Virus record (IMG/VR): IMGVR_UViG_2874945390_000003
Length of the DNA: 32,454 nucleotides
Origin: a virus
Lineage: Duplodnaviria > Heunggongvirae > Uroviricota > Caudoviricetes
Strand: one strand, 5' to 3'
Part shown: positions 3,001 through 6,000 of the stretch, piece by piece
Position numbering within the stretch: the stretch's first letter is position 1
Layout of the letters: every line of letters begins with the position of its first letter
Made by a program: the position numbers

Positions 3001-6000
3001 GCCATCAACGCCCACCACCGGAACGATGCCGTTCTGCTTATCAGGGAAGGCGTAAATTTCTTTCGTCCACGGATTAAGGCCGTACTGGTTGGCGACGATC
3101 AACAATGCGATGAACTGCGCATCGCTGGCATCACCTTTAAATGCCGTCTGGCGAAGAGTGGTGATCAGTTCTTGTGGGTCGACAGAATCCATGCCGACAC
3201 GTTCAGCCAGCTTCCCAGCCAGCGTTGCGAGTGCTGTACTCATCCGTTTTATACCTCTGAATCAATATCAACCTGGTGGTGAGCAATGGTTTCAACCATG
3301 TACCGGATGTGTTCTGCCATGCGCTCCTGAAACTCAACATCGTCATCAAACGCACGGGTAATGGCTTTTTTGCTGGCCCCGTGGCGTTGCAAATGATCGA
3401 TGCATAGCGATTCAAACAGGTGCTGGGGCAGGCCTTTTTCCATGTCGTCTGCCAGTTCTGCCTCTTTCTCTTCACGGGCGAGCTGCTGGTAGTGACGCGC
3501 CCAGCTCTGAGCCTCAAGACGATCCTGAATGTAATAAGCGTTCATGGCTGAACTCCTGAAAATGGCTGTGAAAATATCGCCCGCGAAATGCCAGGCTGAT
3601 TAGGAAAACAGGAAAGGGGGTTAGTGAATGCTTTTGCTTGATCTCAGTTTCAGTATTAATATCCATTTTTTATAAGCGTCGACGGCTTCACGAAACATCT
3701 TTTCATCGCCAATAGAAGTGGCGATAGTGAATTTAGTCTGGATAGCCATAAGTGTTTTATCCATTTTTGGGAACTCCTGGCTGATTAAGTACGTCGATGA
3801 GTCGTTTCCATCCGTCACGTAATTTACGGGTGATTCGTTCAAGTAAAGATTCGGAAGGGCAGCCAGCAACAGGCCACCCTGCAATGGCATATTGCATGGT
3901 GTGCTCCTTATTTACGCTTTAAATTGCTCCGTGTATTCACTCGTTGGAATGAATACACAGTGCAGTGTTTATTCTGTTGTTTATGCCAAAAATAAAGACC
4001 AACTATGCGGCCTCGGAAGGAAGTCCAATCATCTTATTCAAATCTTCTACCCGTAAAGCAGGAAGTGCTGTACTTGCTTTATCTGCTTCTTTTGGTAGCA
4101 ATTCTTTGCTTTCAGGCCAAACTTCAATAAGTCGCTTAACTGTTGTGACTGAGTTCAAAGCAGCCCATACATTTGATTCGATATCCTTTTTCCTGGCTTT
4201 AAGTTTTTGTTGCAATGCGCAGATTTCATCAAACCTTTTTGTTATTTCGTGTTCTGCGCTAAACATGTATTTATCTCTGGTCGGAGTAGGGAGCAATATA
4301 TCTTCGCCGTTGCCGTCTTTCCCATATGAATACCATCCAACCCTTCTGCCAGATACAGTCAGATAAATTGAAGTAGAACGAACATCGCATGAGTAAAATG
4401 AACATCCCATCTTTTCAAGTTCTTCACTTATAGCTACCAACTTGGATGATAACTGATCCACTTCCTCAGTTTTCTTCTTCCCGCCAAACGCAACAACTCT
4501 GGCGTCAAGTGCAAGCTGGTTCTTTAGCTTTGTTACTTCTTCAAGTTCAGTGAACACCCCGGACTTAATTAAAGCGTTGCGTGCTATTACTTCTTTTATT
4601 CTCGTTGTTAAGCGGATTGATGACATATTAATTCCTCTCAAATAAGTGGTTTGCTGCCTGATTTCATTTTCTGGCGACCAACACAAGTCATCTTGCTGTC
4701 AGCTGTTTGGATTTCCTGTAGCCTGCCGCGTAAAGAGCTACGTTTGGAAGACATACACCAGTTTCTGGTTGCTTATGTCCAAACTCATTCGCGTACACAA
4801 TGGCCGCTCGCTCCAGATTGCGTCTGTATTCTTTCTGCTGCCAGATCACGTCCTGTGCCATGAACTTAATTGGCTTAGCGTCTTCTATGCGCTCAGGCGT
4901 TTCGTGAGTACCTTTAGCCTGAATCTGCGCTCTGCTTAGAGTGGGGCGGTGTAATACTTCTGAACTTATTGCTTCTTCGCGGGCCAGTACGCCGTTAGCT
5001 AATGCCTTTGCCTTTAAACGCTCACGACGACGAGAACGTGAATTGCCTTTGAACTGAGTTCTGCGTGTCATATGGACCTCCTGATGAACTTTGGTGGTGT
5101 GGTAGGTGGGAGACCCATTTTGACCTGTTTCGGCCTACTTCAATTCGGCAATAGTCCCGCAGGCCTCGCCGCTTTACGTGCGACATATTCCCGTCCATGA
5201 ACCCTTCACCACACCCCAAAGTTCACTTTGGTTATTGCGCTTTGTCAGCGCCGTAGATTCATATTCGAATCGTTGTATATTCACCGCCCTGGTGAGTAGT
5301 GCGTCCTGCTGATGGCTTAAAGATAACCTAGGTTATAGCAGTGGTTAATAACTTAATTTATGGATTCTAATAAATAAGTTATAAGTGATGGATAATAAAG
5401 GTATTTTATTTTTGTAAATGTTGCGGATTGGTCGGTATTGGAAGGGGGGCGCTGTATTGCTGGCGTGTTGGTTCGTGGTTTACCGCATTTGCGGCTGTTA
5501 AATATGGGGGACGATCGCGAGGCAAAGAAAATCCGGCGCGGAAGCCGGGTTTGAGATTTAGTTATTTTCAGCAGCTCGGATAAGAGCGGAAGTGCTGACG
5601 AACATGTTCGAGCTCACCGAAACGTATGCGGCAGTAACTGCGCACATAAACTGGCTTGTCGTGTTCGTAGATGAAGTCATCGCGATTAACATCGTGAGCC
5701 ATAGCTTTTCTCCTGTTTTTGTATACAGCCTGTTTACCCGAACAGGTTGTAGTTTGTTGGGAGAACCGCTATCCTTGGCTTGCGGTTGCCAAGGGTGTAG
5801 CGGTAGGTAATCCTCCATACACTTCGGAAATACTGGAAATATTTCCGACCCCAAAAGCCCCGTTGCCGCGGGGCTTTATTCTTTTGTTCCGCCATCAATC
5901 ATAGCAAAAGATTCCACAATCAGACTGATACGCTTGGCTTCATCTTTTGTCAGGTCGCGAGGCAGGTTGCCAATGGTGACGATAAGATCTCCGCGCAATG

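Follow-up and report, generated by a model that had tools for sequence, protein, structure and literature searches.

A 46-residue CIII that ends within the kil start of a defective lambdoid prophage is a common natural allele

The cIII gene in a 32,454-nucleotide stretch of DNA from a tailed virus (Caudoviricetes; IMG/VR record IMGVR_UViG_2874945390_000003), hereafter called the window, encodes a protein of 46 amino acids that ends at a TAA codon overlapping the start codon of kil. We interpret this gene as the short natural allele also present in phages HK620 and HK629, which has kept its functional core and came to this prophage by mosaic exchange, and we give this reading a probability of about 0.88. 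The short CIII has been known since the annotation of HK620 and is a common natural allele.

The cIII coding sequence occupies 3757..3897 on the minus strand (46 codons and TAA). It was identified as an ORF of the window, with the product MQYAIAGWPVAGCPSESLLERITRKLRDGWKRLIDVLNQPGVPKNG up to the stop, and as a match to the Pfam family Lambda_CIII, and the same protein is annotated in RefSeq as WP_001198866.1. The stop codon lies at 3757..3759 (read 3759-3757 on the minus strand), as established by alignment with lambda and by translation of individual loci. Read in codons of cIII, the minus strand at the junction is AAT GGA TAA, and in codons of kil it is ATG GAT AAA; the two genes have 8 nt in common (ATGGATAA), compared with an overlap of 32 nt in lambda. 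The leftward genes follow one another on the minus strand in the order N (4688-5071), cIII, kil (3621-3764), gam (3249-3545), bet (2458-3243) and exo (1781-2461). The cIII gene is thus found downstream of N and directly upstream of kil, which it overlaps. Its position in the pL operon, its ribosome-binding region and its thermoregulator element are all as in lambda. The ORFs and the minus-strand reading bear out the first-pass annotation, made by hand translation, which described a 46-aa CIII ending at a TAA that overlaps the kil ATG and a Kil protein beginning MDKT.

A single base accounts for the stop, a discrete difference in sequence and not a statistical pattern. Alignment with the lambda genome (NC_001416) places an A on the minus strand at window position 3758 where lambda has C, and this change converts CIII Ser47 (TCA) to a stop and Kil Gln3 to Lys. 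The state that the first-pass annotation gave for lambda, with TCA at this point, a 54-aa CIII and a Kil protein beginning MDQT, agrees with the same alignment. Lambda CIII (NP_040620.1, 54 aa) is an inhibitor of FtsH (HflB), and its residues 1-46 are the same as those of the window protein save for I36V. It ends in PKNGSNTYGYPD, and the C-terminal SNTYGYPD is missing from the window protein. The further differences from lambda nearby are several synonymous changes in addition to I36V in CIII and F17S in Kil.

The CIII proteins of HK620 (a P22-like Lederbergvirus) and HK629 (a Lambdavirus), both of which we take to have been isolated as plaque-forming temperate phages, are identical to the 46 residues encoded in the window, as is that of phage JEP4. 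The cIII genes of HK620 (AAK28863.1) and HK629 likewise stop at this TAA, share 8 nt with kil and differ from lambda by the linked synonymous changes seen in the window. Phage TL-2011a and the examples of Stx1a and Stx2a phages that were translated have the same stop. The GenBank entry for HK620 describes its cIII as 'similar to Bacteriophage Lambda cIII; protein shorter than similar proteins due internal stop codon', from which it follows that the short CIII had already been noticed on publication of the HK620 genome (Clark et al. 2001, as cited in PMC2629481). As a discovery the short protein consequently matters little, being noted at that annotation and routinely named CIII by RefSeq.

The frequency of the allele was estimated with 55-nt megablast queries in which the variant base is central, such that every 28-mer seed includes it. 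Among 5,426 complete E. coli genomes, TAA was identified at 249 places in 221 genomes and TCA at 1,122 places in 950 genomes; these counts are lower bounds, as loci that differ in both flanks escape megablast, and TAA makes up approximately 18% of all scored loci. Of the phage records in GenBank, 77 carry TAA, about a third of those scored, and 137 carry TCA. The 77 records include HK620, HK629, JEP4, APC_JM3.2, TL-2011a and 70 Stx1a/Stx2a phages. Within IMG/VR we identified TAA on 82 contigs and TCA on at least 120, and an exact-sequence look-up returned at least 1,000 contigs for each of the 46-aa CIII variants with I36 and V36. RefSeq names these variants 'protease FtsH-inhibitory lysogeny factor CIII' (WP_001198866.1 and WP_001198858.1), with no pseudogene mark. 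An exact-pattern scan of species-representative genomes gave no match to the TAA allele, a collection that holds one genome per species and is thus uninformative on frequency in E. coli; the same scan with N at the variant base gave 18 matches, all of them non-TAA and in unrelated taxa.

These counts bear on the two possibilities raised by the first-pass annotation, a natural allele and a truncation. The first stands, as the allele is widespread, though its product is shorter than that of lambda. A damaging truncation or one arising by decay is not supported, since the 46-aa form is common in functional phages: HK620, HK629 and JEP4 carry the identical protein, and APC_JM3.2 and approximately 70 Stx-converting records share the stop.

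The features of the protein that are retained are those to which its activity has been mapped. The match to Lambda_CIII (PF02061) scores 104.4 bits against a cutoff of 25.7, and residues 2-43 align with all 42 positions of the model. The core of the family is thereby matched from end to end, which places the missing tail outside it. Kobiler et al. (PMC1838920), citing Kornitzer 1991, describe a 24-residue amphipathic region comprising residues 14-37 of CIII as both essential and sufficient, and they report a cIII- phenotype for the substitutions S17A, R24A, L26A, R27A and R32A. In the window protein residues 14-37 are complete, with the conservative change I36V, common to HK620 and HK629, as the only difference, and all five of S17, R24, L26, R27 and R32 are kept. 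The Rfam element Lambda_thermo (RF01804), a translational control element of cIII mRNA, is intact as well. It was identified by cmscan on the minus strand at 3852..3910 (88.5 bits, gathering score 50; E = 1.2e-21; positions 1-59 of 59), and it spans the cIII ribosome-binding site and the first codons.

The short CIII lacks only the eight-residue tail SNTYGYPD, beyond the conserved core of the family, and retains the amphipathic helix of residues 14-37, which inhibits FtsH (HflB) and thereby protects CII. Given that the core and this helix are retained, the 46-aa protein is most likely a working CIII. A direct assay of a 46-aa CIII was not found in the literature that we looked at. The frequency of the allele can be regarded as a natural experiment, which suggests that lambda CIII can do without its last eight residues, in line with the published assignment of its activity to residues 14-37.

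The kil gene (3621..3764, minus strand) begins with the ATG at 3764-3762 and encodes a protein of 47 aa. It was identified as an ORF and by its match to Lambda_Kil (PF06301; 65.9 bits, cutoff 27.6, over all 31 positions of the model), and an identical gene is annotated in RefSeq as Kil, WP_038341317.1. A Shine-Dalgarno-like AGGAG motif, putatively that of kil, was read directly from the sequence at 3774..3778. It sits inside cIII, 9 nt upstream of the kil ATG, and is kept in every phage aligned. Lambda Kil, like HK629 Kil a ZipA-dependent inhibitor of FtsZ, has the same length, and its residues 4-47 are the same as those of the window protein except at F17S; its start is MDQT rather than the MDKT that the window protein shares with HK629 Kil. 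The F17S change (base 3714), in helix 1 of Kil, is absent from the other aligned phages. By the features set out in PMC11762379, the helix-turn-helix core (residues 4-38) is conserved and the RSSK form of the C-terminal RSSK/RSK motif is present. Kil lacking its first five residues still inhibits division (Naha et al. 2025, PMC11762379). In the same study an HK629 Kil shortened at the N terminus, without residues 1-5 and hence without Lys3, was active in a ZipA-dependent manner. Because these residues are dispensable and the shortened HK629 protein is active, Q3K is unlikely to matter for Kil, and the Kil encoded in the window is most likely still a working FtsZ/ZipA-dependent division inhibitor. 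The historical long kil ORF, of 89 aa with a start inside cIII, is also open in the window (3621-3890, minus strand). In some phage records (933W, HK629, TL-2011a) it is this long form that is still annotated, in place of a Kil of 47 or 37 aa, and in some phage records cIII is left unannotated.

The window resembles different phages on the two sides of a junction within kil. In a six-sequence alignment the window is of the HK620 type over the stretch that begins at the cIII ribosome-binding site and ends with the TAA, and it shares all of the linked synonymous differences there; from approximately kil codon 26 onward into gam it is of the lambda/933W type. The interval holding the junction is 3687..3758 on the minus strand. 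Upstream of approximately position 3915 the window is unlike every sequence aligned. The kil gene of HK620 and HK629 is the 37-aa form (ending KWRSK) and is followed by hkaM-type genes, whereas the window has the 47-aa lambda-type C terminus of Kil followed by gam, bet and exo. Upstream of cIII the window has, in place of the HK620 genes, a gene of the nucleotide-modification-associated Nmad5 family (4003-4686, minus strand; Pfam, 236.5 bits). This gene, flanked by N and cIII, occupies the place of ea10/ral/sieB in lambda and is also annotated in E. coli FDAARGOS_944. That genome is the only one among the complete E. coli genomes to match the 501-nt cIII-kil region at 100%.

Approximately 200 IMG/VR loci were compared for the stop and the length of Kil. 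TAA is paired with the 37-aa HK620-type Kil at 64 loci and with the long Kil at about 17; for TCA the corresponding figures are 5 and about 110. The exact pair of CIII and Kil proteins encoded in the window occurs on 2 contigs, and the combination is a less common recombinant. The backgrounds of TAA include I36, V36 or L36, an alternative N terminus of CIII, and Kil of either 37 or 47 aa. On nine TAA contigs CIII has 48 aa and a different N terminus (beginning MIYAIAGGARMGAFQLNES) fused to the lambda-type core; this form is another mosaic junction, inside cIII. The occurrence of TAA on several backgrounds points to an old, recombining allele, and the patterns in these sequences indicate that the stop has been shuffled by the ordinary mosaic recombination of lambdoid phages. 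The allele reached the window prophage by this route, rather than arising there through decay.

The prophage in the window is defective, with IS insertions and a split helicase gene. Three copies of an IS3-family element of approximately 1264 bp (341-1604, 11247-12510 and 17559-18822) are 99.6-99.8% identical, and each contains ORFs of 100 and 272 aa on the minus strand. The length and ORF sizes fit IS600 of Shigella. The second copy splits the gene for a phage replicative helicase of the DnaB family (9616-11265 and 12485-13363). The N-terminal ORF runs approximately 320 residues past position 33 of the DnaB_C model, with sub-threshold matches to Hint and LAGLIDADG, and the C-terminal ORF picks up at that same model position, which suggests an intein at the P-loop of the helicase that was later hit by the IS element. 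An IS66 transposase fragment (18838-19728) and an IS110-family transposase gene (23896-25092, minus strand) are also present. Near these, a gene for an E3 ubiquitin ligase of the IpaH family of type III secretion effectors (29148-30791, minus strand; NF046045, 564 bits) suggests that the prophage lies in a Shigella or EIEC chromosome.

Such degradation is what gives weight to the view that the stop is a loss-of-function nonsense mutation and cIII a pseudogene within a decaying prophage, as three IS3-family copies, the IS66 and IS110 transposase genes and the IS-split helicase surround it. However, complete HK620, HK629 and JEP4 and hundreds of prophages carry the same allele with its linked synonymous changes, which puts the allele before the decay, and the residues lost lie beyond both the Pfam core and the functional region at 14-37. 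We consider this view highly improbable: the allele is identical in intact phages, and the decay of the prophage is for that reason unrelated to it. As the prophage is defective, selection on this copy of cIII may already be relaxed. An error of sequencing or assembly in the window, to which we attach a negligible probability, was rejected, as the same base is present in hundreds of independent genomes, phage records and viral contigs.

It is also conceivable that the C-to-A change owes its persistence to an effect on kil, by way of either Q3K or reinitiation and translational coupling from cIII to kil, with the shortening of CIII a tolerated by-product. The variant base falls in both reading frames, and the cIII stop now comes 2 nt after the kil ATG. 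Compact stop/start geometry such as that of ATGGATAA is typical of coupled genes, and the arrangement in the window would fit it. TAA is also strongly associated in IMG/VR with the 37-aa Kil (64 loci against about 17). However, this association could be plain linkage within one mosaic module, and all four combinations of allele and Kil length exist. The AGGAG motif of kil is present in both alleles, and residues 1-5 of Kil are dispensable for activity (PMC11762379). Additionally, no change in RNA structure around the kil start was found on substituting A for C: the predicted local fold has -10.3 kcal/mol for both alleles and is no more stable than shuffled sequence (z-scores near 0). We regard selection for an effect on kil as quite unlikely, and favor a short natural allele of cIII acquired by mosaic exchange.

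A more speculative proposal, which we think improbable, is that the 54-aa and 46-aa classes of CIII represent two functionally different states of the lysis-lysogeny module. Without the tail, CIII could be degraded by FtsH at a different rate, and a cIII stop only 2 nt beyond the kil ATG could tie the translation of kil to that of cIII. If so, the polymorphism would tune the frequency of lysogenization or the filamentation of the host among lambdoid and Stx phages. In annotation, a CIII of 46 aa that ends in the kil start is no reason to mark the gene as a pseudogene and no sign of prophage decay.

The 18 non-TAA matches among the species-representative genomes are to a 30-mer of the lambda-type cIII/kil sequence, in assemblies of Shewanella, Pseudomonas, Vibrio, Bradyrhizobium, Enterococcus and others. 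They are mostly on short or low-coverage contigs, several of them of approximately 48.4 kb, and in these unrelated species they look like contamination of public assemblies with lambda control DNA and not like a real distribution.
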